NCBI GenBank assembly: GCA_008632985.1
Contig: QPGO01000072.1
Coordinates: 248,001-312,000, forward strand
Source of the DNA: Psammoneis japonica
Taxonomy: Eukaryota
Reading direction: 5' to 3'
DNA length: 64,000 nt
Shown piece after piece: positions 22,544 through 45,470 of the stretch. The translations under genes and the position numbers were made by a program. Position 1 is the stretch's first letter; each line of letters begins with the position of its first letter. The notes below the pieces were generated by a model. The model had not been told where the DNA came from. It ran no database searches and was given only the letters and a program-made list of their open reading frames with translations.

Positions 22544-23760
22544 CACAAATGTGTGTCTGTCGAAACCATTTGCAGCGAGAAATGATGACAAATCCCCCCG
22601 AACATTTCTTTTCTGTGCAATTGCATTGTGTTTCAATCGAGTCACACAAGGGTTTGTGATCGCGAGTTACGTCAGAGTTCTCATTTTTCCTTTTTTTGGA
22701 AGCAGACAAATGACGTCAGCATGGTGCATTGCTTGCTTGCTCTTTGCTGCAACAAGAAAAGGCACAATGTGCGCCATTGTGGGACATGCCAAACAATGAA
22801 TTGGAATTGACAAGAAATGCAGAAAGAGCACCGCATTGCCACGATCCAAACAAATCCTGCTGCACTCACCACATCTAAGAGCAGTGGCTGAGATGAGCTG
22901 GAGTGCACCCCACACCACCTCTCTGTCTGTTTGCACCTGGATTTGCTCCACAAAATGGTGCTGACCATCTGCAGACACTTCATCACACACCCAAGCTGGG
23001 AGTGCATGACACGTGAAAAACTCCCCTGTGGGGGATGAAAACCTCAAAGGGGCCCAGAGGCCAAGCAACCACCCAAGTGGTGGCTGGCCTGGTGGACCCA
23101 CCATCGTGAAGGTGGCGTGAGCTTTGGGCACCTCATCCTGGCACTCGGGCACTGCAAAAAACATGTTTTTGCACAGACTGCAGTGCTCTGCTTGCCTGTC
23201 AAAATCTTGGCAAAAGGGTTGCTCAAAAGCTCATCATGCTGCCCTCCATTGCCACCACCAGGCACGAGCATTTTTCCAGAGCTGTGGCCACTTTGTGCAT
23301 GACATCATGGCGGTCATTGGCTGCACTGTGGTTGCACCTCTTGTGCAAAACAGATCTGAGGATGGATGCATTTTTCACAATGCACACTTCACAGTTGCAT
23401 GGTGCACAACACAGCGGTGGAGTTGCTCTGTGGGACTTTGGATTTTCAACCTGTTTTGGGTGTTCTCACACTTGGGAGTGACAACTCCACTGCACAGTGG
23501 CGCTGTGTGCAGTGAGCCACACTTTTCTCACCAACTGTGGCTCTCACAGGTGCCAAAGCCTTCATGTTCCATTTCCACTGCCTTGTGGCTCACCTCATCC
23601 CCAACCTGCAAACTGGCCACAGCAACACACCCATTGTTTGGATGGGCGGGAGCGAACAATGTTGTGCCACAGCTTTGTCACTTGCTGCTGCTCCTGCATC
23701 ATTGCCAAGCACACTGCTGTCACAGGAGCTGGTGTCCTTCACCAACTCTGTTGCTCTCCA

Positions 23761-24038
23761 TGCAATGAAGGTGGTCTTCAATGCTGCCAACATCACAAGT
23801 GCAATTTTGATCTCTGTGCAGCAGTGAAAGAGCAGCATGGTTGTTCCTTGTGCCTGTGCCAACTCTGCTCTGTCTTGCAGACAGTCCACAAGAGGCTCCA
23901 CTTGCAATGAAGATCTCCAGCGTTGCCAACATCACAAGTGAAATTTTGATCTGTGCAGCAGTGACAGAGCATGGTCATTCTTTGTGCCTGTGCCAACTCT
24001 GCTCTGTCTCACAGACTGTCCACAAGAGACTCCACTTG
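23761..24038. repeat. Diverged tandem duplication, ~140-bp unit
   Basis: tgcaatgaag...tgccaacatcacaagtg...tgtgcctgtgccaactctgctctgtct...ctccacttg occurs at 23761-23902 and 23903-24038. Confidence 0.8.
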
Positions 24039-24299
24039 ACAGAGGATGGCTCAATGACAACAACAATGGAGGTGGGCACCTGAGCTGGAAAACAGCCAAA
24101 ATCAAAAGCCACATGGGTTCCACTGCAACATCTGTGTGGGCTTTCTGCTGCCTCACAATGTTTGACAGCACACCCAGCAACTCTCATCTAAAAAAGCAAA
24201 GCTCCAGCCCCGCAGCGCTGCAAGCCAAAATCAAGGAGTCAGCCAACAAGACCTGTCAGCACACTGTCTCTTGTTTTGTTGATTCTACCCAAACAGCTC

Positions 24300-27200
24300 A
24301 ATGACCTGACACAAAGGCGCTGAGCCATTGCTTCTTGATTGCCCCTTGTCACGCAACAGCAGCAATGACAAACCTCCTCAATGAGTGCAAAAATAAAGAG
24401 CAAGAAAGTTCCCCAACTCAAACTGTTGCTTGTCAACAACCCAAAGACAAACAAGCTTGTGTCTCCTTCCTCAAGAAAGAAGAGGGAGCAGGCAAAGATT
24501 GACAACAGCAAGAAAGTGTCCCAGCCACTTGTCTCTGCAATGTGCTTGAGGACAACAGCAAAAAAGCAACAATTGCAGCCTTTCTAATTGACTCCACTGA
24601 AAATTTTGATGGCACCAAGTGCTGCGCAACATTTCAAAATGAGCAAAGAACTTGAGGAAATCTTGACCGGGATCTGGCGACAAGACTTTCTGTTGCTCTT
24701 TGGGACTTTGCTGGCATTGTTGTGCAATTGAAAGCCCAAAAGCGCAGAGCATTGCCTTTCCAGCACATCACAGTCACAGAGTGTAAAATGTGGACAACTT
24801 TTGTTGCTTTTGCCATGGGATTCCTGCCTTTCAAATGCTGCCAGGTGTGTGTCTCTCATTTTTTCATCCAGCTGCACAGAATCCCCTCCTCCCAGCAGCC
24901 AAGCTTCTTCCCTCATGTTGCAATGACTTTCCATTGCTCCCATCCATTTTGTTTGGCCAACTCAGAAATTTGTCACATTGACTTTTGGGTTCACGTGGCT
25001 CAATGGTGGGAGGTGTCTGCAAGGAAATGCACAGTGCTCTGGGTGCCATTGACTGTTTGATTGGCAATGCACACATCACATGGGTTGACCTTGAACCCGA
25101 TTTTTTCTCCAAGTCCTTGCAAAATCACTTGCACCACAGCAGAGCTGTGACCAACATGCTGCAAACAGCTCCAGCAACTTCAACACACAGAGGACTCTTT
25201 TCCCCTTCTCCATGACCACATGGAGCCCACACAGGAGGCAGGTGGGGATCAATGCTTGCCAGTGCGGCAACCAACACACTCCTGCAATTTTCATCATGAT
25301 CTGGTCTTTGCCTTCCTGAGGCTCCAAAGTCAATGTCTGCACAAATGTGTTTGGCACATTGGCACTCATTGTGTTGTGCCCTTCCATGGCATCAATGATG
25401 GCTGTCTTTGTTGGTGTTCCTTCCAATGGTGCCATCAGGCCAGCTGATCATCCTTGTCCAGTCATTTTGCAGCTGGTTTTCAGCTGCAAACTGCGGCCCT
25501 TTTGTGCAGCTATCTTGCTTCTCCATCAGGAGCATCAAGGCAATCACAGCCTTGGTCCTCTGAGTCAGAGTCATGTCTTCAACTGACATTGGTGCAAAGC
25601 ACACCCTGTCATGGAGTTGTCCAACCTCCTTCTCTGAGATGTCATGCCCCCTCTGGACAAATGCTTTTGGGTCTTTGTGCAGCAAATGCTGCTGGACAAA
25701 GGAGGTGCTCTTTCCTGATTGGAGTCAGCTGTCAATCTTGCACATGATGAGTTGTGCACACCAGCACCATTGCTGCATCTGCGCTGCACTTGATGTCATC
25801 CTCTGGATTGGGCTCACATTCAGCTGCTTGCAAGTGGGCAACAGCACTCAAGTCTGTTCTGCTTGGGCTTTTCTTTTGTGTTGTCTGCCGCTCCTGAAAA
25901 TCAAACTTTCTTTTCTCTGTGTTCATGTGATTTGATATTGAATGATTTGCCAGTCCTGGTCACTCTGTGTGGGACATGAATTGTCCTCTGACTCTTTGTC
26001 ATCTCCATCTTCTTCTTTGACTTCTTGGCTCTTGTGCTGCTCATTGGAGCTGAGCCTTTCATCAGCAAGGACTTCATTTGTTTCTTCATGCTCATTGTCT
26101 GAGTTTGCTTCACAATCACAGTCTTCATCTTCTGACTTGGTCAGGCAGTTGGCACTGCTGGTGTGTTTGTTTTTGTTTTTGTTTTTTTTTTTCTTCACTT
26201 TTTTATTTGCTGTCACTTTCATCATTGTCCACTCTCCTGCAGTCCAGTCAGCACAATGCAGGTTGTCTCCACATTTGCCTGCAACTTAAATCTTTGACAC
26301 CTTGTGCTGTGGCCATCTTCTTGATTCTTGACTGCTCACATGTGTCAGTCAGGGGCATGGCAGTGCACTTGTGGAGATTGAGAAGCTTGCCCATGTTGTG
26401 CAGGTTCACAGCACAGGGGCCACCCTTGGGAATGTCAAAGCATGGTTGCAGATGCATGCTGTCAATGCTGTGCATGTCAATGGTGGTTGTTGGGTTGTTC
26501 TCAACATGAGACAGGACAAATTCACCAAATGCAAGCTCAAAGTGCGCTTGTTGTCACAGTCAAGGTTTTTTCATTGCACAACAGTGTGTGGACTGCACAT
26601 GTTGAAAATTCCTTCTTGGTGTGGTGCATGTTTGACATGACAACATTCTTTGTCATGGAATGCTCACACATCAACTTGGGCATCATCTTGCATGGCAGGT
26701 GGTGTGCAGTGTCTTGAGTTTGCTCTTTGATTGTCTCAATGCTCTTTTCAACTTCAGGAACATGGTTGCCAGTGTTTGCAGGCATCAGCTCTAAGTTCAT
26801 GCCATCGGCAACTTCTGCCAGCATGTCCTCAAACTTGGGGTCACACTTGACAAAGTCAATCTTGAATGAAGCCATGCTGAACTGATTGTTGGGGGGTTGT
26901 GTCTAGTGCATTGCATGCATTGACATGCTTTTTGGACCTCAGTCTCACACTCTCAATTGGCACTGAATCATCTTGTCTGTTGTGTGCAGTGTCCCAACTC
27001 TGCATGCTTCCACAACATCAATGCAGAGGATTGTGCCTTCTCTCTGCTTCTTGTGTGTGTGTGTGTCCGATGGGACAGCCACAATGTTGCTCCTCTCATG
27101 GGAGCAATGTGCACATTTGGTCTTGCCCTTCAGCAAGTCTGTTGGTTGGCCCCAAAATGCAACCATCCTGTCCACATCTTTGGGCACAATTGACAAGTTT

Positions 27201-28650
27201 TTAACCTGGTTTGAGGTGAAAACAGCTTGAAATTCCTCACACTGGGAACTCCAGCTTTGCAGCACAGTCTGAGTGCTCACCAAGTGCTTGCTGCCTTCCT
27301 CTTGGTGTGGCTTGTGGAACTCTGCTCCACTGTCAGAACCACAGCTCTGGATGCACTCCTGTGCTTCTTGTTGCTCTTCTTCTTTCATTTGCCAGCTGCA
27401 GCCCATGCCATGCAACACTCCTGCTTCAGCCACAGTGGGCCAATTGGTTGGATCTGGTGGTGCATTGATGCCAGTGTTGTCACCAACCACTGTCAAGTGG
27501 TCTCATTCCTGACTCACATCTGCCACATGCAGTGTCTTGTTGATGCTTGCAGTCTGGAGGCATGTGGCTCAGTTTGCTGCAACACAGTGACACACCACAG
27601 CATTGCTCTGGTCACTCTTGTGGGCATGGCTCTGGCTCTTTGTGTTGTTGTCGGACCAGTTGCTGCTGTTGTCATTGTTGCCACCACTGCCATTCTTGCC
27701 ATCTCTTTGCTCATCATTTTTCCTCCTGTGCCAGTTGCAAAGAGTGTCACCAAAAAAGAATCCTGCTGGACTTTCTGTGCTGCTCACTGCACTTGCCTTG
27801 GCAGTCTGTGATGGCTGTGGGTTGCCAAAGGTGTCAATGTAAACTGCAAACTTGTGCAATGACAGGTGCCTGCCAATGCTGAATGATGAATCATGCAAAC
27901 CAAATGATTCACTCCAAAGAGTGAAATGAAAAACAAAGGTGAGAGATTGACAATGGCAAAACTGGTGCAGCAATGAATCACCCAATGAGCCACCTTGTGA
28001 GTCATGAGTTGTGTGTCTCTGTTCTTCAACCCATCCGGGTTTTTCATGATCTCTGTTTGTGCTCTGGCTCCAACAGAATGACAACAAAATCAATGCTCAA
28101 CAAGCAGTCTGGATCATCCAGCACAGCAGCAACAGCAGCCAAGCCTTTTTACAAAACTGTGCCAGCAAGCAATGGGTTCACGAACCTTGCCATTTAATTT
28201 GGAAGATTGGAAAGTCGCTGGCTGTCTTTCCTTGCATGGAATTGCTGTCAAGCAGTCTTCAAGAACATTCCCTTTTGTCCTTTGGGGCAACATTGACAAA
28301 AACTGGCTGTCCAGCAAGGAGAATAGGAAATCTGTGAGCATTTGTTTTTCACTTTTCAATTTCCTTAACAGGCAATCAGCAAGACCTGGGCACCTTTCCA
28401 CCAATCAATGACAACCACCACTGGCACACCAAAAGAAGGCATCGAGATCAACTTCATTGGACAACACCACGTCCGCGCTGAACCACTGTCGGGACAACAC
28501 GGAGTGGAGCACAAACATGTGCTCTGTCTTGATCTTGTCTGCAGCATTCATGAGCCACAATGTCCAGGACCCCATTGCATCCTCGGCCAAAAAGACTTGT
28601 GTGGATTGTCAGATCGGCTCATGCGGGTTGTCTCCAGAAAAGAAACGTTT
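24300..28650 (-). mobile_element. Degenerate Ty1/Copia (diatom CoDi-like) retrotransposon
   Basis: Integrase-like ANTGNHVPEVEKSIETIKE (~26730-26790). RT-like KEVGQLHDR..F.P, LMLLMEKQD, AIIDAMEG..SANVPNTFVQT, GKRVLCV, PCDVCIAN. Gag-like segment at 27.5-28.3 kb. Many frameshifts; LTRs not resolved. Confidence 0.75.
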
Positions 28651-28928
28651 GTCAAATCCTTCACGTCCACACCTGGGACAGCGAGTGAGGGGTTCAAGCT
28701 TTAGAGCTCAAGCTGCACTTTCTAGTTTTTAGAAGCTTCACCTCTACTTTTGGTGCTGTACAAGCATTCGGTAAAGCTCAAGGTACACTCCTTGGAGATT
28801 AGTAAGCTGAGGGGCTACCATGCTATTTCTTATCCCACAAAAATTATGGCTCATTGCTTTCGCTATTGTGCCAGGTCAAGCTTTCACCAACAACAGTCAA
28901 AAATACTGTCCCAATCACTGCATCAGAT

Positions 28929-29876: not shown

Positions 29877-30805
29877 TTAACTTAGTAAAAGCGCTACATT
29901 AAACTTGGAAATCCCTGATTCGTACGGTACCAGACAGTCATCCGGAACATTCAATCCATCACACACAAAATTCTGATTACTGGTATAAACACCATCAAAT
30001 TGTGTCTCTCCAGCACGGTAATCGCCTCCTCGGATGCCAACGTCCAGCTCGCCATTGTTGTTCCGAGGCCTCACACCGTTCCCATAAAGAGTCGATACAC
30101 AATCGAGTTGTTTGAGTAATGGGCAGTAGCAACCTGACAACCACACATTCTTTCCCACGTGTACCATGTCAATCAACTGCAAGCTTGGCGACCTGAGGCA
30201 AAGCTGCTGGTTATAGAAATGGTCACGCTGAGAATTGCTCAAACGGAGGGTTTCAAGGAAGGGAAGGGATTCAACGAGCTCTGTGAATGCCAGAGTATCT
30301 TCTCTCAGCTCTGTAAAAGACAGAGTATCTCTTTGGATTTCACGCCAATCAAAGCTTGTGGTGATGACAAGATGTAATCCGCGAATCTTCATTTGCCCCC
30401 AAGTAGATCTTTCGACTTTGAAGTCATCTCGACCGAACGCGAGCGTAGTCTTGAGATTTACAAGACTTGGACAGATTTCTGCAACCGACCGGTAAAAAGA
30501 ATCGATCGAGGACACTCTCGGCAAAGATCTAGGAAGGCCTAGCTGATCTAAAATGTCGCCAGAAGAGAGAGGCCTAGGCGGTCGCGTTAAATCAAACACA
30601 TCTCGGCCTTGCGCAGTAGTGACTCCTAGCAGCCAAGCACGTTTTGCTATCAGCCCACTCCCCTGTTCATTCCACATCCGCTCGTCATATGTAGCGACGA
30701 GTGTCGTTAGCTTGGATACATCACACATTCGAAGTATGTGTAAGAAAAGTCCCAAGTCGGCAAGTGAGGAGAGTTTCGTGAATTTCAAGCTACGCAATTG
30801 TAGCT
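29877..30805 (-). pseudogene. 3' part of an F-box/LRR-like gene split by the Gypsy insertion
   Basis: LRR-like segments (CPSLVNL, LPFLETLRL, SPSLQLIDM, CPLLKQL). Joins 37420+ in frame once one AGCT TSD copy is removed (…WVTTRKL|QLRSLKF…). Confidence 0.75.
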
Positions 30806-31391
30806 TGTCACGTCGTGCTCATGACCCGACACTTCGAGACGTCATAAAGAACAATAGAGAACTACGGACAGAACCTACACACATCTACGTGAACATACAT
30901 CAAGAGACACATGCATACTACATGAACAATTATCCAACATCTTCCTCCTAAGTAAACAACCGGACACATGCGGAAAGCGATAGTAAACAACTGGACACGT
31001 GTATCACTTCCTAAGTAAATCGAGAAGACATTTCTTAGCCGAACTTCAAGTTCCTTTTCAGCCAATCCGATTCTCACAAGAAAACGGTCGAAACGATGAA
31101 GAGCGAATCGGATCTCTCGATTTTTCCCGTGATACCTTCGGACACCATACGTGACCTCCTCAGAAGTCCCAAGACGTTCCCTTAGACGATATACACTTAA
31201 AGAAGAACCCAGGAACGTTCCTACATAACAAGAACAGAATTTCTCTGGAAAAGAAAGAATCGAAAGAACATTCCGCGAGATCACCGCTCCAGAAATTCAC
31301 TTCATAATTTTACACTTTTATAGTCTCACTTTTCATGAACGACTCTTAAAATCACCACAATCACCCACAATAGGCCTTGTGCCACATGACA
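30806..31391 (+). repeat. Gypsy 5' LTR (TpA-intact)
   Basis: Direct repeat of 36834-37419. Confidence 0.97.
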
Positions 31392-31423
31392 TTTTGATCA
31401 AACAGTGGCGTATCATTATAATA

Positions 31424-33085
31424 ATGCCGCCTCTCAGCATAGTACTGAGCATTCTACTTAAGGCGAAGAAAGCCTACGTACGTAGCCCCCAGTTCGACGG
31501 AACTGAAGAATAGTACTTTAGAGCGTTACCTCAAGATAATACTTATACAGTACAGGAGGACATGACTAGTCAAGCGATTGTGAAGTTATACAAGTCGTAC
31601 CCCCAAGTAGCGGACGACGTTGCGAGCCTAATCAAGTACAAGGTTGCGCCAGACCCGGGAGAACCGGAAGACACGGTGGCATTCTATATCCATCAGTGTG
31701 ATACCTCCATCAAGGAGAAGTACCTAGTCTTTTTAAAAGACTTTAATGAGCTAAGAACGGTCAAGCACTGGACAACAGGACCAGTACTTCATTGCCAGAT
31801 GTTATGCCTAACCAGAGGCTCCATCAAGGACCGATATCAGAGAGCGGTAAGAGCTCTAGTTGAAAATCCAGAAGAACTTACCCCTGAACAGTTTGATACA
31901 GCAGTAGAGACAGCCACTGCTGGACTGCTTCCTCGAGACTCAGCGGCAGTGCAGAAGCAGTACTTGCGCTCCATACGCAAGCCAAGAGAAACTACCTTCA
32001 TTGAATTCACCTCCAGAATTTCGGAAATCAATGAGCTAGTACCCTACATGAGAGGCTCTGCAGAAGAGAGAGCCCCTCTCACGGACCAAGAGTTAACTTA
32101 TGCAACAGAGCATGCTGTGCCGGATGATTGGCGAGAGAGATTCCAACTATCCGTCGGACACAGAGGTGAGTATGGTATGGCAGACTTGGAGACATACTAT
32201 TCCACCATTGAATCCTTCCTACAGAAGAAGAAGGCCCAACAAGAGAGAAGGTTGTCAAATAACCAACGGCGATTCCAGAGACGTATCCCCACTCACGGCT
32301 ACCGAACCGCATACGGACATGGAGGCGACCGAGCGACACGACCGAGCAATAATAACAATGACAACGCCGGAGCTCCTCCCAACCAACCACATAGATATCC
32401 CACTCGATACCAAGCCAACTTACAGCGTGATAGGAACCGTCCTCAAGGCTATGGTCAACGGAGAGGACGTACCCGAACGAATCGGCAAGAAATACGTGCC
32501 GTACACGAGCCAGAAGAAGCTCTACCAGTCCAGAACCCGGACAACAGTATAGACTCAGCCCCAGCTGAACAACTGGAACAACTCAGCATAAGAGATGATT
32601 CTGAACCTGAATCTTATGAACAAGAAGACGGACTTGAGATACCAGAAGACGATACGAGCTACTCTTATGAAGAATCAGACGGAGAATATGATACTTACGT
32701 GGAAGAGAACTATTGCGTTCTGTTGCCAGAAGACTTTGAGCTGCAACAGAGACAGAGACCTCCCATGGACCCAGCAGAAACAACTGATGCATCCAGCATG
32801 CCGGAATTTGTGCCGCACAGCGGATCAACATCGTCAGACAGCGATGATTTGTGGAGTACCGCTAGTAGTATGTCAACAGTATCGTCGACAACCTTGTCTA
32901 TGGACGAGCTGTCATCTTTTGGAGAAGATGCCGATGACGAGTATGAGGCTACAGCAGACAGCGCGGATGAGTGCGCATCTCTGACATCATCAATTTTCGA
33001 GCATGACAACAGCACGGACGCCCAGGAGTTGATAGAAGCATTATATCCAGATGGAATGGACGATTGCGACTACGTAGGGCCCTAG
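31424..33085 (+). CDS. Gypsy gag with acidic C-terminal region (in-frame TAG at 31511)
   Basis: ORF 31562-33085 with QKQYLRSIRKPR..FTSRISEINELVPY..AVPDDWRERF. The upstream in-frame ATG at 31424 is followed by a premature stop. Confidence 0.75.
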
Positions 33086-36000
33086 TGTTCCCTCATGGGG
33101 GCATATATCCTACGAGAAGGAACTTATGTGTTCCAGGTGACCCAGACGAATTCGAAGAAGAAGAAGGACATTCGAAAACGTCCGAAGACACCGAACCCTA
33201 CATATATGAGCAATGTCGCTCACTTTCTCATCGAGCAACTGCCTCGAAGACGAAGCGAGCTGTATCGGCAGACGAACTCATGAATAGCGAGTCCGATAAG
33301 AAAATGTCACCGGCTCCAGAGTCCGATACCGATGAAGAGAGTATCTATATGACGAATGAACTTATGCCAGCCGTGGCGCCTGAGCCACAACCAGCAGCAC
33401 GAATGCCTGAACCAGACCCTCAGAGTGATGGTTACGAGCATTTGAGTGCATCCAGTGATCATGATTTCTTTTACTGTGAACCTGGCACAGTGCACCTAGA
33501 TGATGAAGAGCATCGTACTTGGTTCCACCAAGAAGAAGAAGTCTTTGGAGATGGCATGTCTGACCATCTCAGAGAACAAGAAGAGGAGCAAAGCAACAAC
33601 AAGAAGCCGAGAAGACACGCAGCACGAAAGCCTCAAAAATGTGAGTGGAAGAACCCCGGATGCATCGTGCGACTTCAACTACTCGATCCAGTTGATGGGA
33701 CTCAAGACAAAAGCAACAATGTTCTGCTCGCCTTGCTCGACAGCGGTGGCAGTCGAACAATGACAAAGAGAGATGTGCTCTCAAAAGAAGCACTGGATGA
33801 GGCTGCCTTGGCACCAACAAGATGGGAGACCTTGTTTGCGCAGACCCATCAGACAACTCATGTCGCACTCACTCGTTGTTGATTCCTTGACACATCCTCA
33901 CACAGACAATTCGATTTATGCTTTTACATTTCATCATTGCAAGGAATCTATGATGCTGTTGTAGGACGAGATGTTCTGTTCAAGCTTGGAATGAAGCTTG
34001 ATTTCCAGGAAAAAGTCATTGCTTGGGATGACTTGTCCTTTCCGATGAGACATCCCGAGGATTTTTGGCACCGACCGACGACGCAAGAAGAGCTCATGGC
34101 GGCTCGTAAGGCCAAAGCCATTCGCCCAAATGACTGTAGTCCCACAGAGGACTTGCAAGAGTGTGTGCCCGAGCACTCATCGAGAGAGCAAGGTGAAGCT
34201 CTTGTTGCTTTGCCAGAAGACTTCTCCAGTCTCACGCAAGGAGAGCTCGGACAATGTGCCAAGCAACCACCGGTCAACATTGAGCTTAAGCCCGGCACCG
34301 AGCCCATTGTGTGCCGACCTTGCAGCATGCCCCAGATCAACTGCAACATGGCAAAAGGAGAAGCAGAGAGATTGTGCCGAGCAGGAGTTCTGAGAAGGAT
34401 CTCAGACTCAGCTTGGGGATTTCCCTCAATGTTCACACCGAAGAAAGGTGGTGATTGCCGATTTGTCACCGACTTTCGGCTGTTAAATCAACGCATGCAA
34501 CGACGCCCATGGCCTCCACCTTTGACACCAACCATGCTCTGAAAGCTGCATGGCTGTGCTTGTGTTGCAGCGATCGATTTGAATGTGGGATTTTTTACGA
34601 TGCGGATCAGCCAGAAGAGTCAGCAGTGTCTGACTGCTGTGCTGCCGTTCGGCAAACATGCTTGTTGCATGTTGCCAATGGGACTTGCACCAGCCCCAGA
34701 TGTGTTCCAAGAAGTCATGACTGACTTGCTGGGACACTTGGAATTCGTTCTGATTTTTATCGACGACTTGTTGATCATTGGCAAGGGATCCTTTGATGAT
34801 CACCTCGCCCAATTGCGCGAAGCATTTGTGCTTTTGAATGATGCAGGCTTTAGAGCAAACTTGCGAAAAACTTTCTTTTGCGCTCTAGAAACGGAGCACC
34901 TGGGGTTTGTCATTGCTAGAAACGGAATCAAACCGCAACCCAAGAAAGTCAATGCGATTGTGAATTTAGTTTCGCCCAAAACAAAGAAAGAACTCAGAGG
35001 TTTCATTGGAATGATGAACTTCTGTCGCGAGATGTGGCGACTTCGTGCCCATCTGTTGGCACCTCTTTCCAGTGTGACCTCGAAAGCGGTCAAGTTCGAG
35101 TGGAAACCCGAACACGAGCAAGCGTTTCAAGAAATTAAGAGACGGATCTCTACCGAGACGCTTCTTGCCTGCCCTGATTTCAATGAGATGTTCTACATCT
35201 ACACCGATGCTTCGAAATGCCAGCTGGGAAGCGTTGTCATTCAAGACAAGTGCCCGACAGCATTCCACTCCCGCAAACTCTCCGACACGCAAAAAAGACA
35301 TCCAGTTGTCGAACAAGAACCACTGTCGACAGTTATGACGCTACGAGAGTGTCGTGACATCCCATTGGGTCATAGGATCACGATCTGTGCGGATCACAAG
35401 AATCTGACCTTTGCAAATTTCAAGTCAGACCGCGTGTGTCGTTGGCGACTGATCGTTGAGGAATTTGGTCCCACGATTCTTTACCTGCCGGGAGCAAAAA
35501 ATGTGCTCGCGGATTTCTTATCACGTGCCGCGACCACGACTAGCGACCCAGAGACACCAGCTGCAGATCCAACGCTGGAAGAGTGTTTCGCCTTTGAATG
35601 CGACGATGACACTCATTGTCCTATCTCGTTTGACACGATTGTTGAAGCACAGCAAGATGATGCTACGTGCAAAAAAGCATTGCAACTTGCTCGAACCGAC
35701 CCGAGTCGGAAAGAATTGTCTGACTACAGTTGCATGGTGCAGGATGGACACCTGCGCCTGGTCCTTTTTAAGGACAAGATTGTTGTCCCTACAACTTTAC
35801 AAGCACCTCCATTGAACTGGTGTCATGTCAATTTACGCCATCCAGGTATCCAACGAATGGAAAAGACCCTCAGGCAGTGCTGTTGTTGGCAAGGTTTGAC
35901 CCGAGACGTCAAGACCAAGGCAGACCAATGCCAGACCTGTCTACAGTCAAAAGAGAACCGCAGAGTGTATGGAAAAACACCTCTTAAGGACATGCGAGCC

Positions 36001-36810
36001 CTTGAGATCGACCCCTGGTTGCAGGCAGCAGTCGACACTGTCGGACCGATTACCTTTGCTGCTGGCACCGGCATCAACCAACGAAGTTTGACGTTAACCG
36101 CCCTCACGATGGCAGATCTAGCTACTCATCATTTTGGCATGGAGCAGATCTCCACAGTCTCAGCTCTGGAAGCTGCCAGAGCATTTGACCAAGCGTGGTC
36201 ATGCAAATTTCCGCGCCCAGTCTGTTGCACACACGACAACGGTGCGGAATTTACAGGTGTTGAATTTCAAGAACTGCCAGTTTCTTATGGGATTAAGTCT
36301 AAACCTGTGACAGTGCGGAACCCACAGGCGAATTCACTGCTTGAACGGACCCACGATGTTTCATGGAGCTGCATGCGGGCCCAACAAGTCGATGATCCCG
36401 ATGCATTTAATCAACCGAATCCATGGAATACGACAACAGCCTCAGCAACTTGGGCGATAAATTCGACGGCACATGCCATCATGCAAGCCTCTGCCGGCCA
36501 ACTAGCTTTTGGAAGAGATGTGATCCTTCCCTTGCAATGCAACGTCCACTGGCCGACCATTTGTGCTCGCCGCCGACAACAAGCGCAAGCAGATGACGTG
36601 CGTAAAAACTCTCGGCGACTCGACCATGACTTCAAAGTGGGAGACCTTGTTTCTCTCCGAAACGACAACCCTCGTCGATCCAAACTCGCCTTACGCCGAC
36701 TTGGCCCATGCGAGACACATGAAGTGAAGTCCAATGGCACCGTCATCATCCAAAAAGGAAATTACCTTGAGACCGTCAATGCGCGGCATCTCGTTCCTTT
36801 CTCTCCCTGA
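33064..36810 (+). pseudogene. Gypsy pol (protease, RT, RNase H, integrase); frameshifted and Tyr->Cys/His mutated
   Basis: ALLDSGGS, WGFP..PKKGG..RFVTDFR, LPMG, FIDD, TDAS, SRKL, DHKNL, NVLADFLSR, H-PG..C..C, HDNGAEF, NPQANSLLE. Confidence 0.93.
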
Positions 36811-36833
36811 TGCGATTCATTGGAGGAGGCGCG

Positions 36834-37419
36834 TGTCACGTCGTGCTCATGACCTGACACTTCGAGACGTCACAAAGAACAACAGAGAACTGCGGACAGA
36901 ACCTGCACACATCTACGTGAACATGCATCAAGAGACACATGCACACCACATGAACAATTGTCCAACATCTTCCTCCTAAGTAAACAACCGGACACATGCG
37001 GAAAGCGACAGCAAACAACTGGACACGTGTGTCACTTCCCAAGTAAATCGAGAAGACATTTCTTAGCCGAACTTCAAGTTCCTTTTCAGCCAATCCGATT
37101 CTCACAAGAAAACGGTCGAAACGATGAAGAGCGAATCGGATCTCTCGATTTTTCCCGTGATGCCTTCGGACACCATACGTGACCTCCTCAGAAGTCCCAA
37201 GACGTTCCCTCAGACGACACACACTTAAAGAAGAACCCAGGAACGTTCCTACATGACGAGAACAGAATTTCTCTGGAAAAGAAAGAATCGAAAGAACATT
37301 CCGCGAGATCACCGCTCCAGAAATTCACTTCATAATTTTACACTTTTATGGTCTCACTTTTCATGAACGACTCTTAAAATCACCACAATCACCCACAACA
37401 GGCCTTGTGCCACATGACA
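36834..37419 (+). repeat. Gypsy 3' LTR (TpA-eroded)
   Basis: Direct repeat of 30806-31391 with 21 substitutions (manual count). Confidence 0.97.
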
Positions 37420-37949
37420 AGCTTGCGTGTTGTGACCCATGGCACACACTTCAACCAATCAAAAAGAACAAAATCAGCATCAAGATGACCAAGAATGGCT
37501 GGCAGGCAACTTTTGCACAACTTGTTGAATCGCTTGCAGACGAGTGCAATGGTGCAGTGAAGGCTTTCTGCTTCAGGAAGAGTCAGGAGTGCATCAACAG
37601 AATCTGGGCTGCGGATTTTCACGCCTAAACCATCACTCTCTTCTGAAGGAGCAGACACTGTGGGCTCACCAGCACCAAGAAACGACAGAGTGTGAACCAA
37701 ACAGCAATCTTTAAGGTCCGAAATTGACAGCTTTTGTGGAGTTGCGATTTGCCTCCACGCATTGTTGCGCCACTTTACTTTCTCTTCTGAGTCGTCCTCT
37801 CCTCCAACTGCTGCAGTTGCCCAGCCTCCATGATTCACCCGTTTGCTTGCAACATGGGCAATCTGTTCATTGTAAACCCGCTTCTTGCCTTTGCCCCGTA
37901 AGAGAATCACGGGCGCCGATTTCTGAGAATGCGAGCTGTGCACCTTCAT
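37420..37949 (-). pseudogene. 5' part of the F-box/LRR-like gene (F-box motif), TpA-depleted
   Basis: LSISDLKDCCLVHTLSFLG...IALVCKRFNKLC. Continues in frame into 30805. Start codon uncertain. Confidence 0.7.
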
Positions 37950-38120
37950 CACATTCTCTTTGACGCGCCCACCTGTTCTTCTGTGCTTTTGTTTTTGAGC
38001 TTCTCTGGCCAATCCAGACCTTTCACAACATGTGTGGAGCCGCGCTTGAACAGATGAGAGAGTGTTCGAGAGGATGACAGCCAACAATCGGTGTCAACAC
38101 AGCCTCCGCTCTCCGCTGCG

Positions 38121-41100
38121 AGTTGACGTCTGTCAATCCACCTGTCGACTGCGCGCAATCACGCGCATCTGTTTTCAAATTCCGCCATCAAAACTCTGCT
38201 CGATGTTGCAGTCATAATTTTCAGTCAACGACTTTTGCAACAACAACAGCTGCTAGTTTACAACCTTGAGCATCAGCTCTTTCGACATCTGCAGTCAGTC
38301 ATCTCAAGCCGTCGATCGTCCATTTCAAATGGAATCGCCGTTCATCGATTCGACAGACCTCTCCAGTCTGTCGACGATGACACCACGTGCAGCTGAGCCT
38401 CCCTCCTTTGTCGACAGGCTCGTACGCATTTTCCCGCCACTGGAACCAATCCATGGAGCTGGAATCATCATCGTCAAGCGTCGTCATTTTCGGCCGTTGC
38501 GACACCAAACCCGGGCTGAGTCGTTTCGAACTCTCCAAGTCCATGCCAAGTCAAGACCTGCCTCTCACGCTGTTCGACGACGACACTCTCGTTGCCGATT
38601 GATTGTTGAGCTTCTGTGGCAGTCTCCCAATGATGCTGCATCGAGAGCTTCATTTTGCCGTTTGTGCCCCAAACTCCGCGCAGCTTCAGCACCAAGTTCT
38701 GCGCATTGACTCAAATCCACCATGGCCGGAACGCCGTCAAAGACTCCGTCCAAGACCCCCAAGGGCACCAAGACTCTGCAACAGAGGAGTCAGACTCCTC
38801 AACCTTCTCGAACCAGCAATGGGACACCTGCTGCTCCCGCTGGCAAGAACAGCAGTTCCACCACAGGAGCCAATCAACCTCCGCCTCCTCCAAGGTGTGG
38901 AGGGATCCATCCAGAATGTGGGTGATGCATGGGTGGTTCTCCGTTGGATGACGACTGCAAGCCCAAGCCACCTCGTTCCTGCCGCTCAACCAACCAGTCT
39001 CACGACAAGAAGATTCTGCTGCACATCGAACGTGCTCTTCACGAAGCTTGAGACGGAACACTCGTCGTCAAGCTTGACGGAAACCTCGAGCTCACTGACA
39101 TGACCTCCAACGAGCTCGACCAATCCCACTTCGTTCAAGCTATCCGCACCCTTGTCAAGGAGCATGGCTTGGAGAACTTCTTCGCTGTGAAGCTCGAGAA
39201 GAAGGTTGTGTCACCATTCGACCATCTCCACTCTTTTGCGGTCGACGAGGTGATTGCCGAGTGCCTTCATCACGCCAACGTCGCCAAGGACTTCACTGCC
39301 TGTGACGATTGCGAGCACAACGATGTCGCCCTCTCCCGATTGGTTGTTGAGTCTAGAATCTCACACCGATTCCACGAGAAGATCAAGGTCCAATTCGGAC
39401 ATGACGATCTCTTTGAGTGCCACCCCGGTCAAGTCTGTTTGATGATGGCTTTGGATGCTTGCAATGCATCTGCCGTGCATGACGTTGCCCAAGCCACCGA
39501 GGACCTCGATGCTCCATTGCTTGCATCCCACCCGGGTGAGGACGTGACTGAGTTCGCTGCCGAAGCTCTCCGTCTCACCAAGCTGCTCCAAGCCGGGTGT
39601 GCATCACCTGTCGACCTCGGGTCGAGCATTCTCAAGAAGTGCCAAAAGACCTCATGTGAGGCACTCAATCGCAAGATTTACACCAAGTTGGACAAGGTGT
39701 CGACCATGGAACACAAGCATCACCTTGGCGATCCCAAGGCGATCACCGCGGACTCCGACTGTGATGAACTCGGGCCCACAGCGTGCACCTCCTTTTTGCA
39801 GAAGGAGCATCGCTTCTGCGTCACCGACAAGGATTGGCCCAGACTTTCCACCAAGCTCCCTCAGAGCAACAACGCTTCCAAGACCAGAAAAGGGGCCTGC
39901 AATGCATGTGGTGCTCCGGACCACTGGGCCAACGATCCCAAGTGTCCCAAGTGTGCCGAACATCAGAAGCACAAGAAAGAGAAACGTGAGCAGCGTCGAC
40001 AGAACAGTCGCAAGGACAACCCAACGGCACCACCTGCCACTGCACCGCCTCCTGCGTCTTCCGTTACGGTCGACACTGTCCCTGCTGACAAACAAGCCAA
40101 ACTCAAGGAGTTGCTCACCAACGAGCCCCATCGTCACACCCGTCCGGCGGCCCTGTCCAAACCCGTCGTGAACAAGTGCGGTTCGACCACGCATTTTTGT
40201 GGAAAGTGCACTTGCAAGCACACCGGCATTCGGGGGATGTACACGAATCACAAGGAGTCAGATCATGTTCGCAAACCACCGAAACAAGAACCACCTGCGG
40301 CCAATCTTACCTCCATTGACGACCCAGATTCGGGCGTCCCACCTGGGCCACCCGCTCAGACTGCTGCAGACCCAACCAATGCGCCCGAGCCCTCTCCTGA
40401 TGAGGATGAGCTTGTTTGGACTGGATTCCATTGTTGTGTGGTCAAGGACTCGTCTCCTCCCACCCCGTCTGTCGCACGAGTCTCCTGCAAACCCGCTTCC
40501 GCGTCTCAGAGGGAGCGCCTGCCGGTTGCAGTCGAGACCGTCGAACCTGAAGATGCTGACGACTTCAGCGATCACTTCGATGCATGTGACGATCTCTCTT
40601 GGGACGATTCCATTGTTGTGTTTCCACCCACGACTGCTCCTTCATCCAGTGTCCCTGCTTCGGGCACTCCGGCTCCTGCGGCAGAGTTCTTCTTCGATGC
40701 CGAGTCCGGACCCGAACCCGTGCCGGATCCACCGGTTCCCCAAGCTCACCATCTGTTGCTGTGGGATCTCCTCAAGCTCCCGCTCTTTTGGATCTCTGCA
40801 ATGCTTTGGGAAGGTCTCCTGTGGCTCGTCTGCTCCCAGGATGATCCCCCCCCTCCTCCCCGCCGTGAACGTCGCCTCAAGCACCGCCCTGCGCTGTGTC
40901 GCTGCCCCTGTCGTTGGGGCGTGATTGCGTGCGCTGTTGCGCTTTGGCATTTTGTGTGCGGCGGCGCTGTCCCTCCCCACCCCTTTCAATCATTGGACCG
41001 CCTCTCTTCTCAAACATATGAAGTTGTCTCTGCTCTCGATGAGCGCGTCGATCTGTCGCCCGGTGCGTTCGTCCAGTGCCATGCTGTCAAGGTCAGACAA

Positions 41101-44100
41101 TTCAAATGTGAGTTGGCGCGCTCAGAGGGAGACAAGCAAGACAAAAGCCACTCTGCCTTTTGAACTTTCTGAGTTGATTGACAGGAGTGACAATGACGAT
41201 TTCTTTGATGCGTGCACGGAGCTCCCCGTCCATGCGGAGCACTTCTTCGATGCTGATGCCTTCTGCGAGTCTGACTGCTCGAGCCCGGATGTCTTCGGCA
41301 TTGCTGACTTGTGTCACGCCCGCCACTTTGTCGACTGTGCCAATGCTCCGGAGCTCGCTACGGAGGATCCATCGGCTTCACCAGCTTTGCCGACCTCCGC
41401 TGCACTTCGTGCCATTTCCGGGGAGACCCAACTTTCGCGTCTCGCCGCTGATCCCCAGGCCCTCTTCCACATCAGACCAAGTGATCTCCAGGTTGTTTTT
41501 GACACTGGTGCCTCGCAGGCCATCACTCCTGACAAGAAAGATTTTGATGGTCCGATCAAGTGCTGCCGGACCCCGCTCCGCCTCGGCAGCATGGCTGAAG
41601 GCATGTGCATCACTGGTGAGGGCACCGTCACGTGGACCTTTCAAGCCAGAGAGGGTCACGAAATTGCTGTCCAGCTCCGCACCTTTCTCGTCCCGTCCTC
41701 CAAGGTTCGCCCACTTTCTCCACAACGTCTCTTCCATGCAGACGGTGTCAAAGGACATTTTTGGGGTGACAGTGAGATTTTCAAGGTTTGTTTTGCAGAC
41801 ACGCCGGAGTCAACGCTCGAGTGCGACGAGCGCTCCCACTCACCGGTTGGCTGCACGACTCTCGGTTCCATCCATGCAACACAAGTCAATTTGAGCGCCA
41901 TCAGCGACCCGGATGACCTCAATCTGTCTGCTGGACAGAAGCTTCTCAATGAATGGCATCATGCGCGCTTTGGGCACTTAAATTTTCCCAATATCCAAGC
42001 TCCACTCTGCGGCCATCCGTTCGAGGCCATGAAATTCAAGGCAGCATCCAAATGCGACATTCCAAAATGCGGTGCATGCGAACATGCCAAGGCTCATCGC
42101 CGTTCTTTGAAGTCTGCCATTCACAAATCCGACCCCAAGCACGATGGAGCGTTGAAGGCTGACCATCTCAATCCCGGCCAGTCCGTCAGCGTCGACCATT
42201 TCGAATCGCGTCTCAAGGGCCGTGCCTGTGATTCATGCGGCAAACCGTCCTCCCAGCAGCATGTTGGCGGCTGCATCTTTGTCGACCACTCCTCTGGTCA
42301 CATCCACGTTGAACACCAAGTCGGTTTCTCCGCTGTCGAGACTGTTCAAGCGAAACAGGCATGTGAGACCATGGCAATGGGACACGGCGTGATCGTCCAA
42401 ACTTGCCTCACCGACGGTGGCGCTTTCAAGGCCAACCAGTTCGTTTCCCACATCCATGACTCCCAGCAACGCATGCACTTTTGTGGCACCAACACTCATC
42501 ATCAAAATGGTGTTGCCGAACGCTCCATTTGGTCCACATCCAATGTGGCTCGCACCATGATCCTCCATGCTTCGATTCACTGGTGTGGCGGCATCGACAG
42601 CTCTCTGTGGCCCATGGCAGTGCACTGTGCTGCCCACATCTACAACGCCACTCCCGGCACTCATGGTCTGTGTCCCGCCAACATCTTTGCTGGCTCCACC
42701 GTCCCACGCCACTGCCTCCGCAATCTCCATGTTTGGGGTTGTCCCGTCTGCGTCTTGGATCCCAAATTACAGGAGGGCAAGAAACTTCCCCATTGGCAGC
42801 CGCGTTCTCGGCGTGGTGTCTTTCTTGGACTCAGCAACATTCATGCCAGTGAGGTGCCGTTGGTCCTCAATCTCAATGCTGGCTCCATCACTCCCCAGTG
42901 CCACATCATGTTTGACAATCTCTTCACCACGGTTGCTTCGATCGCGAGGGAGAGCGAACCGCCAGATCACTGGGAAGAATTGTGGTTGGAGAACACCACT
43001 CAAATTCCCTTGGACTTGACCGATGGACCGTTGTTCCTTCAAGACGACTGGCTCACTCCTGCTGAACTTGAACAGAAACGACGACATGAGACTGGGAAAC
43101 GCAATGTTCGCGCTGCACGTCAACAGCAGCAGAACTTGCCAAAACCCACTGAGAAACCAAAACCCACAGGGGATCCTTTGCCATCTCCAAATCCACCACC
43201 GTCTGCACCATCGACACCAACAACTGCAGTTGATCCATCACCGACACCACCGCCACAAACACTGTCGCTTCAAAACCCATCATCGCCGACGCCTCCAGTT
43301 GACGATCCTCCACCTTCAGTCGCACGTCCACCGTCTGCTGCTGGCAATGGTCCGGGCACGTCAGTCCCATCCACGACTGCTCCAGTCCCACCTGAACCCT
43401 CATCCACGACTGAGACACCAGGGGTGCGCCGATCCCAACGGTCGAACAAGGGTACGCGCACAACTGCTCGTTTCGCCGACGAAGTGCACCTGGCTTCTGT
43501 TGTCCCTGACGATGTTGGAGGACAACAGGCTCAGCTTGCCCATTTGGCTGAGATCCAGACTGACTGTGATTTGGGTGTTTTGGATGTTCAGGCCCGCGGA
43601 TCTACGCCGCCAAGGTCAAACGCGATGCGGATGATCCGAACATTCGCGAGGCTCTCTCGGGTGATTTTGCCAAGCAACACATTGAAGCCATGAAGACGGA
43701 GGCATCTGCTCTTGTCCATCGTAAAACGTGGCAATTTGTGAAACAGGAGAAGTCAATGAATGTGCTCAAGTCCATGTGGGCATTCAAGTTGAAACGATTG
43801 CTGGATGGCACGCCGCTCAAGTTCAAAGCGCGATTTTGTGTCCGAGGAGATCTGCAAAAAGAGGGAGTTGACTGCTTCGAGACCTGCGCTCCAGTGGTCC
43901 AATGGTCGACCATCTGTCTCGCATTGAGTGCTGTCCTGCAAGAAGGATGGACCACCCATCAGGTCGATTGCACCAACGCTTTTGCGCAGGCCGAGATGAC
44001 GGAAGACGTTTGTGTCGAACCACCCAAGTGTTTCGCTCCCAGTTCAGGATCCAATGTTGTCTTGAAGCTGCTCAAGAGTCTCTGCAGTCTCAAGCAAGCT

Positions 44101-45470
44101 CCCAAGTGCTTCTTTGATGAGCTGCGTGAAGGATCATTGGAACGAGGATGGACCCAGTCGCAAGTCGACCCGTGCCCATTTTTCAAGGACGGTGTGATTT
44201 GTGTGGTCTGTGTTGATGACACCATCCTCGCTGGCAAGAATGGAGCCGCTCTAGAAAGTGAGATCAAGGCTCCAGGCATCCAAGACGATGAACAACGCCA
44301 TGCATTCGAGTTGCGAAACAAGGGAGAAGTTGGCGACTTCCTCGGTGTCAAGATTTTGCAAAACCGGACCCAAGGAATTCTTCCTTGCCCAGCCTGGACT
44401 TGTTGACAAGGCCCTCAAGACAGCTGGCATGGAAGATCGCCGCTCTTCTCCCACTCCCAGTGCTGCCTCTCCATGTCATGCGGATGAAGAGGGAGCCGAA
44501 TTCGACGAGAACTGGGACTGCCGTTCCGTCATCAGCATGTTGATGTGTCTGTCATCATCCAACTCCCGACCTGATGTCTGCTGTGCCACGCATCAAGCCG
44601 CCCGCTTCTCACATGCTCCCAAGCATTCTCGTGCGATTGCGGTGAAGCGCATTCTACGATGCTTGCAAGGCACCAAGGACAAGGGACTCTGTCTGTGCCC
44701 TGGCGACAACGAACGTGTTGATTGTTTCGTTGACGCCGACTTCGCCGGCCTCTGCGGTCACGAAGACACTCAAGATCCGGTCAGCGTCAAGTCCCGCACC
44801 GGACATGTCATCTTGTGTCGTGATTGTCCCATTTTATGGGTTTCCAAGCTACAGACGCAAGTGGCACTCTCCACTGTGGAGGCCGAGTGCCTTGCTCTGT
44901 CGGCTGCGATGTGCGACCTGACTCCGATTCGTGAAATTTTGAAGGAATTCAAGTGCCATGTTTTCGGTCTCATGGATTACAAGACCCCTGCCACCACCAA
45001 GTCCAAGGCCTTTTCAGATGTAAAGGATGGTGCGATCCCTTCTTCAGCAGTTTATGAAGACAATCAGGCATGCCTCAAGTTTGCGAAAATGGCCAAGTTG
45101 TCTCCACGTGCCAAACACATTGGCGTTCCCTGTCATTGGTTCCGCGCCAAGGTCGAGGCTCTTGAGATCCGGATTGAGCCTGTGGGAACTGATTCCCAGT
45201 TAGCTGATCAATTTGCGAAGGGACTTATTGCTGACAAGTTTGAATCTGGTCGGTTGAGTCTCTCAGGCTGGCAGCTCTACGGTTGAGAGGGAGAGTTGAC
45301 GTCTGTCAATCTACCTGTCGACTGCGCGCAATCGCGCGCTTCAATTTTCAAATTCCGCCATCAAAACTCTGCTCGACATTGCAGTCACAATTTTCAGTCA
45401 ACGACTTTTGCAACAACAACAGCTACTAGTTTACAACCTTGAGCATCAGCTCTTTCGATATCTACAGTTA
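38121..45470 (+). mobile_element. Full-length Ty1/Copia LTR retrotransposon (~7.35 kb)
   Basis: 177-bp LTRs at 38121-38297 and 45294-45470, PPT GAGAGGGAG, domain order gag-PR-IN-RT-RH. TSD not clean (TGCG vs TACA). Confidence 0.95.
38329..45286 (+). pseudogene. Copia gag-pol polyprotein, frameshifted, with Tyr almost entirely replaced by Cys/His
   Basis: CNACGAPDHW zinc knuckle, VFDTGAS, HARFGH..CGACEHAK, SVDHF, HHQNGVAER, KFKARFCVRGDLQ, LKQAP, VVCVDD, FVDADFAG, STVEAEC, YEDN, ADQFAKGL. Confidence 0.93.

Follow-up and report, generated by a model that had tools for sequence, protein, structure and literature searches.

The two LTRs of a Ty3/gypsy retrotransposon in the diatom Psammoneis japonica show that a fast local mutation process rewrites TA dinucleotides in transposon DNA. 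All coordinates are positions in the window, the whole 64,000-nt stretch of contig QPGO01000072.1 that was analysed. The first-pass annotation described two 586-bp LTRs with 21 substitutions and no indels, and MAFFT alignment with a base-by-base count gave the same result (586 columns, 0 gaps and 21 differences) for the 5′ LTR at 30806–31391 and the 3′ LTR at 36834–37419, both on the + strand. All 21 differences are transitions. At 19 of them the 5′ LTR has TA and the 3′ LTR has CA (11 sites, T/C before A) or TG (8 sites, A/G after T). The chance that a random difference is of this TA type is 0.071, and the probability of at least 19 of 21 is 2.7e-20. The remaining two are CpG-type, as had been proposed: LTR position 22 is CG in the 5′ copy and TG in the 3′ copy, and position 425 is CA in the 5′ copy and CG in the 3′ copy. 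The 5′ LTR, which is in the unmutated state, contains 31 TA, of which 19 (61%) are gone from the 3′ LTR, close to the earlier estimate of about 60%. The 12 TA of the 3′ LTR are all (12/12) present in the 5′ LTR, and the number of TA private to the 3′ LTR is 0. The CA:TG split of 11:8 has no strand runs (11 runs vs 10.3 expected), in agreement with the claim that both strands are affected. Change at 61% of TA sites compared with 2/524 other bases is a difference of roughly 160-fold, and the empty-site allele of this locus still exists.

All 19 TA losses lie in one LTR (two-sided p = 3.8e-6). The count behind this earlier claim holds, but the bias is not a property of the LTR itself; only the 3′ LTR is affected because a TA-poor domain has its sharp left edge inside the Gypsy element. 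Change-point analysis bounded this 12-kb domain at approximately 33366–45200. It consists of the 3′ part of the Gypsy element, a 0.7-kb linker and a Ty1/copia element, so that apart from the linker it is foreign or repeat DNA. The best point for the left edge is 33365 (support interval 33348–33395, unstranded; log-likelihood gain 47.5), where TA/(TA+CA+TG) falls from 0.307 to 0.089. The sequence around 33365 contains no obvious signal that accounts for this sharp internal edge. The right edge lies between 44797 and 45424 (unstranded), with the best point at 45201. The core of the domain is the copia neighbour (38120–45476, +; 184-bp LTRs at 38120–38303 and 45293–45476), which has 37 TA vs 1258 CA+TG, corresponding to a loss of about 97% of TA, and a normal CpG content. 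The 3′ part of the Gypsy element (33366–37419, +) is partly mutated, with 67 TA vs 688 CA+TG and about 71% of TA lost. The TA odds ratio is 0.4–0.8 in gene regions of the window and 0.00–0.08 in heavily erased blocks. The mutated tract also bears private CpG→TpG/CpA changes, and CpG is also lost in older blocks.

Loss of TA depended on the flanking bases, in the order RTAY > mixed > YTAR. Survival of TA in these three contexts was 0.09, 0.43 and 0.74 in the partly mutated tract; for the heavy blocks the corresponding values were 0.015, 0.054 and 0.128. In the LTR pair, 6/7 RTAY, 11/17 mixed and 2/6 YTAR sites were lost, a trend that is not significant for the pair alone (p = 0.10–0.15). Because the partial tract, the heavy blocks and the LTR pair have the same context order, one process probably acted throughout.

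The carrier has the features of a Ty3/gypsy LTR retrotransposon, namely TG...CA LTRs, a 4-bp target-site duplication (AGCT at 30802–30805 and 37420–37423, unstranded) and the pol order RT–RNase H–integrase. The pol frame (33007–36810, +) contains the Pfam domains RVT_1, RT_RNaseH_2, Integrase_H2C2 and rve in that order, and its relatives are at 34–40% identity. It has in-frame TGA at 33880 and 34540, and the former is CGA in 11/11 contigs of other copies compared. A gag-like ORF of 507 codons (31562–33085, +) is open and TA-rich. A Pfam search of gag, the first two pol pieces and both host-gene flanks gave 0 matches. A blastn search found no further copies of the Gypsy family in the window, the gag protein had 281 pattern matches and 0 confirmed matches among metagenome contigs, and a 26-letter LTR pattern had 0 matches among viral and metagenome contigs.

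Read evidence was taken from Logan contigs, which are assembled sequences and not raw reads, of two runs (X1 and X2) of one sample. Of the words sampled from the window, a fraction of only 0.58 occurs in these contigs, and some positions have no contig with the window's own letter; the Logan sample may therefore differ from the assembled isolate. The 40 of 883 variant positions that were compared all lie outside the 19 LTR sites and outside 37420–37911. Contigs in both runs join 30801 straight to 37420 and skip 6618 bases, that is, the element and one AGCT. The depth of the empty-site contig was 55 in X1 and 13.1 in X2. These empty-site contigs support the view that the Gypsy insertion is young and arose in one event. 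The insertion interrupts a host gene on the – strand, and the two halves share one reading frame across the empty site. The 3′ part of the gene (29877–30805, –) is not depleted, with 41 TA vs 129 CA+TG. The 5′ part (37420–37949, –), which is single copy and probably starts near 37949, where relatives begin, has 5 TA vs 101 CA+TG. The TA fraction is 0.047 at 37420–37949 vs 0.241 left of the insertion (p = 1.1e-5). Comparison of the empty-site contig with the window showed differences at 25/490 bases in the right flank vs 5/732 in the left flank (p = 1.3e-6). The 25 differences in the right flank are close in number to the approximately 19 TA losses estimated there, their TA character being predicted only. 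One well-conserved Tyr column of the host flank (Y in 8/9 relatives) is Cys in the window, too few columns to count. The first-pass annotation held that the changes arose after insertion, and the sister LTRs, the target-site duplication, the empty-site allele and the TA-depleted single-copy right flank all agree with this. Our data support a process that acts in place on DNA.

We consider it very probable that, chemistry aside, a post-insertion, in-place and domain-restricted process converts TpA to CpA or TpG. On this reading the Ty3/gypsy element inserted recently into a coding exon of the host gene, 0.7 kb from the older copia element. A DNA-level process then turned A:T to G:C only at 5′-TpA-3′, the strand that was hit deciding between TA→TG and TA→CA. 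It acted in place over a sharply bounded domain made up of copia, the intervening stretch of the host gene and the last 4 kb of the Gypsy element with its 3′ LTR; in this Gypsy part TA loss is 61–71%. The 5′ LTR and gag lie outside the domain and keep their original sequence, and because of this the LTR pair records the mutation spectrum cleanly. The analysis shows the spectrum and its direction, the timing, the strand symmetry, the domain edges, the spread into unique host DNA and the context order, whereas the chemistry and the targeting are inferred. As for targeting, we favour a repeat-seeded, silenced, cytosine-methylated chromatin domain that would include the linker between neighbouring elements.

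The most likely chemistry may be that an enzyme deaminates adenine to hypoxanthine at TpA sites in DNA, although we place this a little short of an even chance. A different chemistry is rather unlikely but is the strongest competitor. In this alternative the thymine of TpA would be modified, for example to 5-hydroxymethyluracil by a JBP/TET-type enzyme, and mispairing or misrepair would give T→C. TpA is self-complementary, so T→C on one strand is A→G on the other, and the sequence fits both chemistries equally. Against thymine modification stands the one study to have described this spectrum, which names an ADAT2-like adenine deaminase, itself put forward as a hypothesis in the available text of that preprint (10.64898/2026.01.13.699255).

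Both LTRs stem from a single insertion. The G at 31262 and the A at 31283 are common to both LTRs and absent from the other compared contigs, which read A (5/5) and G (3/3) at these positions; the 5′ LTR has been overwritten neither by the family majority nor by a generic donor. This bears on the explanation that the element is a mosaic, in which an assembly or polishing error or ectopic gene conversion joined an unmutated and a hypermutated copy and the LTRs are not strict sisters. Such a mosaic could produce the very sharp edge at 33365. The family is multi-copy (contig depth 10–25 times that of the flanks), its copies differ in the contigs by indels near 33071–33247, and among the listed contigs none spans the whole stretch. 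Nevertheless, the target-site duplication and the empty site place the left and right junctions at the same locus, the depletion runs on into unique flank DNA, and the LTRs differ at only 2/586 positions beyond the TA sites, so we regard a mosaic as very improbable. That an intact copy converted the 5′ part is likewise unlikely, given the private variants shared by the LTRs, but such conversion is possible for gag.

The direction of change claimed earlier, TA→CA/TG and not a RIP-like gain of TA, is supported by pol and gag; given that direction, the 19 TA-site differences between the LTRs are A:T→G:C changes. The reverse explanation is that the CA/TG state of the 3′ LTR is ancestral and that TA in gag and the 5′ LTR was made by C→T at CpA (G→A at TpG). 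Judged from the LTR pair by itself, the two directions are equally possible, since 19/93 CA/TG sites could have changed as well as 19/31 TA sites. In pol, predicted TA-loss replacements with the predicted codons are found in 27/162 conserved Y/V/I/L columns vs 2/150 for the reverse set (p = 8.9e-7). Among 30 columns with conserved Tyr, the element retains Y in 4 and shows C in 8 and H in 3, and Y/(Y+H+C) is 0.60 in gag vs 0.12 in pol right of 33400. The gag frame is free of stops although 32 of its codons are CAA, CAG or TGG, an outcome with a probability of 6.7e-4 if 20% of CA/TG had turned to TA. The 5′ state has the TA content normal for genes, and the 3′ state grades into the blocks of heaviest erasure, which gain of TA could not produce. 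The first 2.6 kb of the Gypsy element has a contig depth of 366–1391 vs 55–72 in the flanks, and its internal state is common to high-depth contigs. Among the listed contigs, three of the 5′ part at 4–6 times flank depth differ from the window by 1, 5 and 1 letters, the third also carrying a 9-base insertion; the TA-rich 5′ state is therefore common to several copies. One dinucleotide of the copia LTRs reads TG in one copy and CA in its sister, the pattern that two hits on a TA ancestor would leave. Two internal repeats of the Gypsy LTR, one an 11-mer and one a 10-mer, survive in the 5′ copy and are disrupted in the 3′ copy (sites 207 and 179), but 1382/20000 reverse-direction simulations gave as many repeated words (p = 0.069) and polarisation from these repeats is weak. 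The host, which the analysis placed among the raphid pennate diatoms, is also not a fungus. Taken with the pol and gag evidence, we judge the RIP-like direction to be extremely improbable.

RIP is the classic repeat-directed transition mutator, and it also mutates the linker between neighbouring repeats. Fungal RIP, as in Neurospora, is similar to the process described here in that a dinucleotide-tied transition mutator destroys repeated DNA in place. It differs in that RIP creates TpA from CpA together with stop codons, whereas the process here removes TpA; the C→T changes at CpA that make TpA and stops run in the opposite direction to those we observed. The mutated tract also does not match the duplicated length: the 5′ 2.6 kb is repeated yet unmutated, and the unique 0.7-kb flank is mutated. 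Simple recognition of homology is disfavoured because the repeated element is not hit along its whole length.

Editing before integration, by an ADAR-like enzyme on RNA or a deaminase on single-stranded cDNA during reverse transcription, could yield step-like gradients such as the step-like profile along this element and in principle unequal LTRs, but it is hardly tenable: the unique host DNA at 37420–38119 is also depleted and differs from the empty-site allele, the strands are hit without runs although cDNA editing is strand-specific, and copia, linker and the 3′ part of the Gypsy element form a single continuous domain. APOBEC3 and ADAR resemble the present process in making clustered deaminase-type transitions in retroelements, and a further likeness is the preference of ADAR for a 5′ U that the Bigelowiella preprint text mentions (10.64898/2026.01.13.699255). 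Their substrates, however, are RNA or single-stranded cDNA prior to integration, and their edits are strand-specific and end with the element. In contrast, both strands, the host flank and only one of two sister LTRs are affected here.

The closest known case to in-place TpA loss, from the text available of a 2026 preprint, comes from Bigelowiella natans, where giant-virus and virophage DNA integrated in the genome is hypermutated at TpA. In mutation-accumulation lines of B. natans, de novo TpA→TpG/CpA changes are confined to integrated viral DNA and occur at a rate approximately 1000-fold above background (Mettrop et al., bioRxiv 10.64898/2026.01.13.699255). As far as that text describes them, the changes share several features with ours: nearly all are A→G and T→C, every one falls at TpA and yields TpG/CpA; they are restricted to regions of foreign DNA; and long-term, clustered TpA depletion is accompanied by CpA+TpG enrichment. 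In B. natans the rate in those regions is orders of magnitude over background. TpA-depleted coding sequences of B. natans are also reported there to be enriched for reverse transcriptase and DDE domains (10.64898/2026.01.13.699255). On the same source, the differences are that B. natans is a chlorarachniophyte (rhizarian) and the host here is a diatom (stramenopile), and that the targets here are LTR retrotransposons. Erasure is near-complete here, with TA odds ratios down to zero vs 0.45 reported for the B. natans giant-virus region. The edge that is sharp within 50 bp inside an element, the spill into a host gene, the RTAY preference and the CpG loss in older blocks distinguish our case from B. 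natans as described in that preprint, in which the process was seen as new mutations, whereas here it is deduced from sequence. Full-text literature searches turned up no account of TpA being erased in a diatom genome, the one apparent mention, in PMC4504042, being the word 'Tpase'. It is possible, although we propose it only tentatively, that diatoms have a genome-defence mutator whose target is the adenine of TpA, RTAY being its best context, in double-stranded chromosomal DNA within sharp silenced domains seeded by transposons, that it erases 60–70% of TA while an insertion is still polymorphic and harms host genes between elements, and that together with Bigelowiella it represents a 'reverse RIP' that is old and widespread in the SAR supergroup.

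In the LTR pair, nature has preserved the states before and after mutation, and with them the spectrum, direction, post-insertion timing and strand symmetry of a mutator that we otherwise found reported only in one 2026 preprint, the available text of which concerns an unrelated alga. The new points are that edges sharp within 50 bp are possible inside an element, that there is a tetranucleotide preference for RTAY and that a host gene suffers collateral damage. RIP makes LTR dating overestimate age (PMC4981457, in the part of that article available), and the same had been claimed for this element. Our counts agree, with a 10.5-fold inflation (21/586 vs 2/586), and LTR dating in the P. japonica genome will be approximately ten-fold wrong if TA, CA, TG and CpG sites are left unmasked. 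No sense codon can become a stop through this process, only TAA→TGA being possible, and because it cannot create stops, dead transposons retain ORFs of 700–900 codons, which gene finders will call. The sharp edges and the heterozygous insertion provide concrete loci for studying the enzyme and its targeting.

The two long terminal repeats (LTRs) of the Gypsy element, a Ty3/gypsy retrotransposon at 30806..37419, form a gap-free alignment of 586 columns with 21 differences (30806-31391 versus 36834-37419). Eleven of these pair a 5′-LTR T with a 3′-LTR C before an A, and eight pair A with G, in the same order, after a T. The other two are CpG-type: CG (5′) versus TG (3′) at position 22, and CA (5′) versus CG (3′) at position 425. 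There are 31 TA dinucleotides in the 5′ LTR and 12 in the 3′ LTR, all 12 common to both; 19 of 31 sites (61%) were converted and none was gained. A random substitution would be TA-type with a chance of 0.071 (P(≥19 of 21) = 2.7e-20), and the placement of all 19 TA-type differences in the same LTR has a two-sided p of 3.8e-6. The first-pass annotation had claimed an indel-free alignment with 11 CA, 8 TG and 2 CpG-type substitutions, TA always on the 5′ side, and a loss of about 60% of TA sites with almost no other divergence; our alignment reproduced each point. LTR divergence is 0.036 with TA sites and 0.0034 without them, and LTR dating would, as had been warned, overestimate the age of the element, here 10.5-fold.

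The element is flanked by AGCT at 30802-30805 and 37420-37423. Contigs from two runs of one public sample (depths 55 and 13.1) connect 30801 directly with 37420; the 6618 bases that they omit equal exactly the element plus one AGCT. The locus therefore also has an empty-site allele, and the insertion is recent enough to be still polymorphic or heterozygous. At LTR position 457 (31262) both LTRs have G and all 5 contigs covering the site have A; at position 478 (31283) both LTRs have A and all 3 covering contigs have G. These shared variants speak against replacement of the 5′ LTR sequence through polishing or through conversion by a generic copy. The AGCT flanks, the empty-site contigs and the two variants private to both LTRs establish that the LTRs are sisters of a single insertion, as had been assumed. 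The order of Pfam domains (RVT_1, RT_RNaseH_2, Integrase_H2C2, rve) is that of Ty3/gypsy, and seven relatives have 34-40% identity.

Further copies of the family were found neither in the 64-kb window nor in public sequence scans. Alignment of pol with the seven relatives gave 558 conserved columns, all within 33556-36799. Replacements of the TA->CA/TG type (Y->H, Y->C, V->A (GCA), I->T (ACA), I->M, L->P (CCA), L->S (TCA)) occupy 27 of 162 conserved Y/V/I/L columns, each with the predicted codon, whereas the mirror set (CA/TG->TA) occupies 2 of 150 (p = 8.9e-7). The 30 conserved Tyr columns hold 4 Y, 8 C, 3 H, 10 F and 5 other residues in the element. The TA process does not account for Phe (TTT/TTC) at ten of these columns (34591-36799), which may reflect common Y/F exchange or a lineage that had shed TA codons. 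The ratio Y/(Y+H+C) is 0.60 in gag versus 0.12 in pol right of 33400. The gag ORF (507 codons, 32 of them CAA/CAG/TGG) is open, which has P = 6.7e-4 if 20% of CA/TG sites had become TA. Three contigs among those listed, at depth 231-324 (flanks 55-72), match the 5′ internal part at all but 1, 5 and 1 letters; the third has a 9-base insertion as well. The TA-rich state is therefore that of several family copies. Repeats internal to the LTR gave weak support for the same direction (p = 0.069). These indirect tests on the element agree on TA->CA/TG, the direction originally proposed. Contigs of family copies also have deletions of 7, 8 and ~175 bases at 33071-33247 and, at 32895, an insertion of 9 bases. 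The gag-pol junction is thus variable in length within the family.

The annotation had stated that both strands are affected, and our counts bear this out: 11 CA versus 8 TG changes (p = 0.65), without grouping by strand (11 runs versus 10.3 expected). This symmetric, ungrouped pattern counts against processive one-strand editing of single-stranded DNA. Survival of TA, measured relative to the unmutated DNA of the window, depended on flanking bases. It was lowest in RTAY (0.09 in the partial tract, the Gypsy 3′ part; 0.015 in the heavy, near-TA-free blocks), intermediate in mixed contexts (0.43 and 0.054) and highest in YTAR (0.74 and 0.128), with p = 0.002 in either region. The LTR pair lost 6/7, 11/17 and 2/6 sites in these classes, a trend that is not significant when taken alone. 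TTAA or GTAA/TTAC made up 37 of 68 surviving TA in the heavy blocks. An intergenic low-complexity stretch at 16410-16530, rich in TA and in CTAG/TAGC (1-kb bin TA odds ratio 1.17), is untouched by the process and holds many TA in YTAR, the refractory context.

The 3′ LTR alone is altered because it falls inside a TA-poor domain whose left edge cuts the Gypsy element. A 300-bp profile and a change-point fit on TA versus CA/TG sites placed a step at 33365 (support interval 33348-33395; log-likelihood gain 47.5), where TA/(TA+CA+TG) is 0.307 on the left (476 sites) versus 0.089 on the right (756 sites), a loss of ~71%. A second drop, to 0.025, lies at ~37381-38607, and the fit sets the right edge at 45201 (support 44797-45424). 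From left to right, the domain (~33366-45200) thus comprises the 3′ 4 kb of the Gypsy element, 0.7 kb of single-copy DNA (depth 69 at 37582-37869), and a Ty1/copia element at 38120-45476 (RVT_2, E = 1.4e-29; 184-bp LTRs). The copia element has 37 TA versus 1258 CA+TG, with normal CpG. The sequence at 33365 was inspected and has no obvious signal. RIP-like recognition of homology alone does not explain this edge, since the 5′ and 3′ parts of the element are equally repeated by contig depth.

Near-TA-free blocks, with TA odds ratios of 0.00-0.08 and an excess of CA and TG, recur in the window, and one adjoins the Gypsy element. Three more (8001-10000, 20001-28700 and 54500-63000; TA odds ratio 0.00-0.07) have, unlike the copia block, a CpG odds ratio of only 0.03-0.6, and look like older stretches in which TA and CG have both decayed to CA/TG. 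One block edge, at 28702, is sharp, with a support interval of 28668-28723. The copia LTRs (38120-38303 and 45293-45476; 184 bp, 14 differences) are a second sister pair. Five sites are TA in the edge-lying 3′ LTR versus CA/TG in the 5′ LTR, and one is the reverse. At one dinucleotide TG faces CA, which is what independent changes of a TA ancestor in both LTRs would leave; the remainder are one CpG-type difference and five others.

Under the genetic code, TA->CA/TG turns no sense codon into a stop, and only TAA->TGA is possible. Since TAA and TAG are erased and TGA alone is left, dead transposons retain long open frames: the heavily mutated copia element has stop-to-stop ORFs of 703 codons (39052-41163) and 922 codons (40925-43693). 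Gene finders may call such frames. Gypsy pol has only two in-frame stops, both TGA (33880 and 34540). The codon at 33880 is CGA in 11 of 11 contigs of other family copies, which makes it a private CpG->TpG change. The element was thus broken by CpG decay rather than by the TA process, which is unable to make stops. Among the 40 variants listed of 883, the window has TG/CA versus CG in all other contigs at 33880, 34179, 34265 and 36638. These sites, at least four, hint that CpG decay accompanies the TA process.

A minus-strand ORF crosses the insertion site in one frame (6618 = 3 × 2206). Relatives of this host gene, 460-500 residues long and with 45-49% identity to the fragment, can be aligned on both sides of the site, which places the Gypsy element in a coding exon. 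The 5′ part of the gene, at 37420-37949 between the two elements, has 5 TA versus 101 CA+TG, and the 3′ part (29880-30805) has 41 versus 129 (p = 1.1e-5). Between the empty-site contig and the window there are 25 differences over 490 bases of right flank, against 5 over 732 bases of left flank (p = 1.3e-6). Some 19 TA losses are estimated for the right-flank stretch, and we predict that the right-flank differences are TA in the empty-site allele. The host gene has thus suffered collateral damage from the TA process. The best named relatives of another host gene, a patatin-like gene at 11066-12808, come from raphid pennate diatoms (Nitzschia inconspicua, 74%; Cylindrotheca closterium; Seminavis robusta; others).

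Our data support the first-pass interpretation, and the LTR differences are real. Full-text literature searches turned up no account of TpA erasure in diatoms; its nearest known counterpart is TpA hypermutation in Bigelowiella natans (Mettrop et al., bioRxiv 10.64898/2026.01.13.699255). That preprint reports 231 of 302 new nuclear mutations within two integrated viral regions. With one exception these are A->G or T->C, and every GC-biased one lies at TpA. It gives rates of ~6e-7 there versus 3.5e-10 elsewhere, and proposes an ADAT2-like deaminase. We infer the chemistry of the diatom process (adenine deamination versus thymine modification) and its targeting signal. Judged from sequence, it may be filed as a diatom case of TpA-directed A:T->G:C hypermutation, known from one preprint. 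Beyond that case, the window offers a clock in the form of the still-polymorphic insertion, an RTAY preference, an edge within an element sharp to ≤50 bp and spill-over into a host gene.
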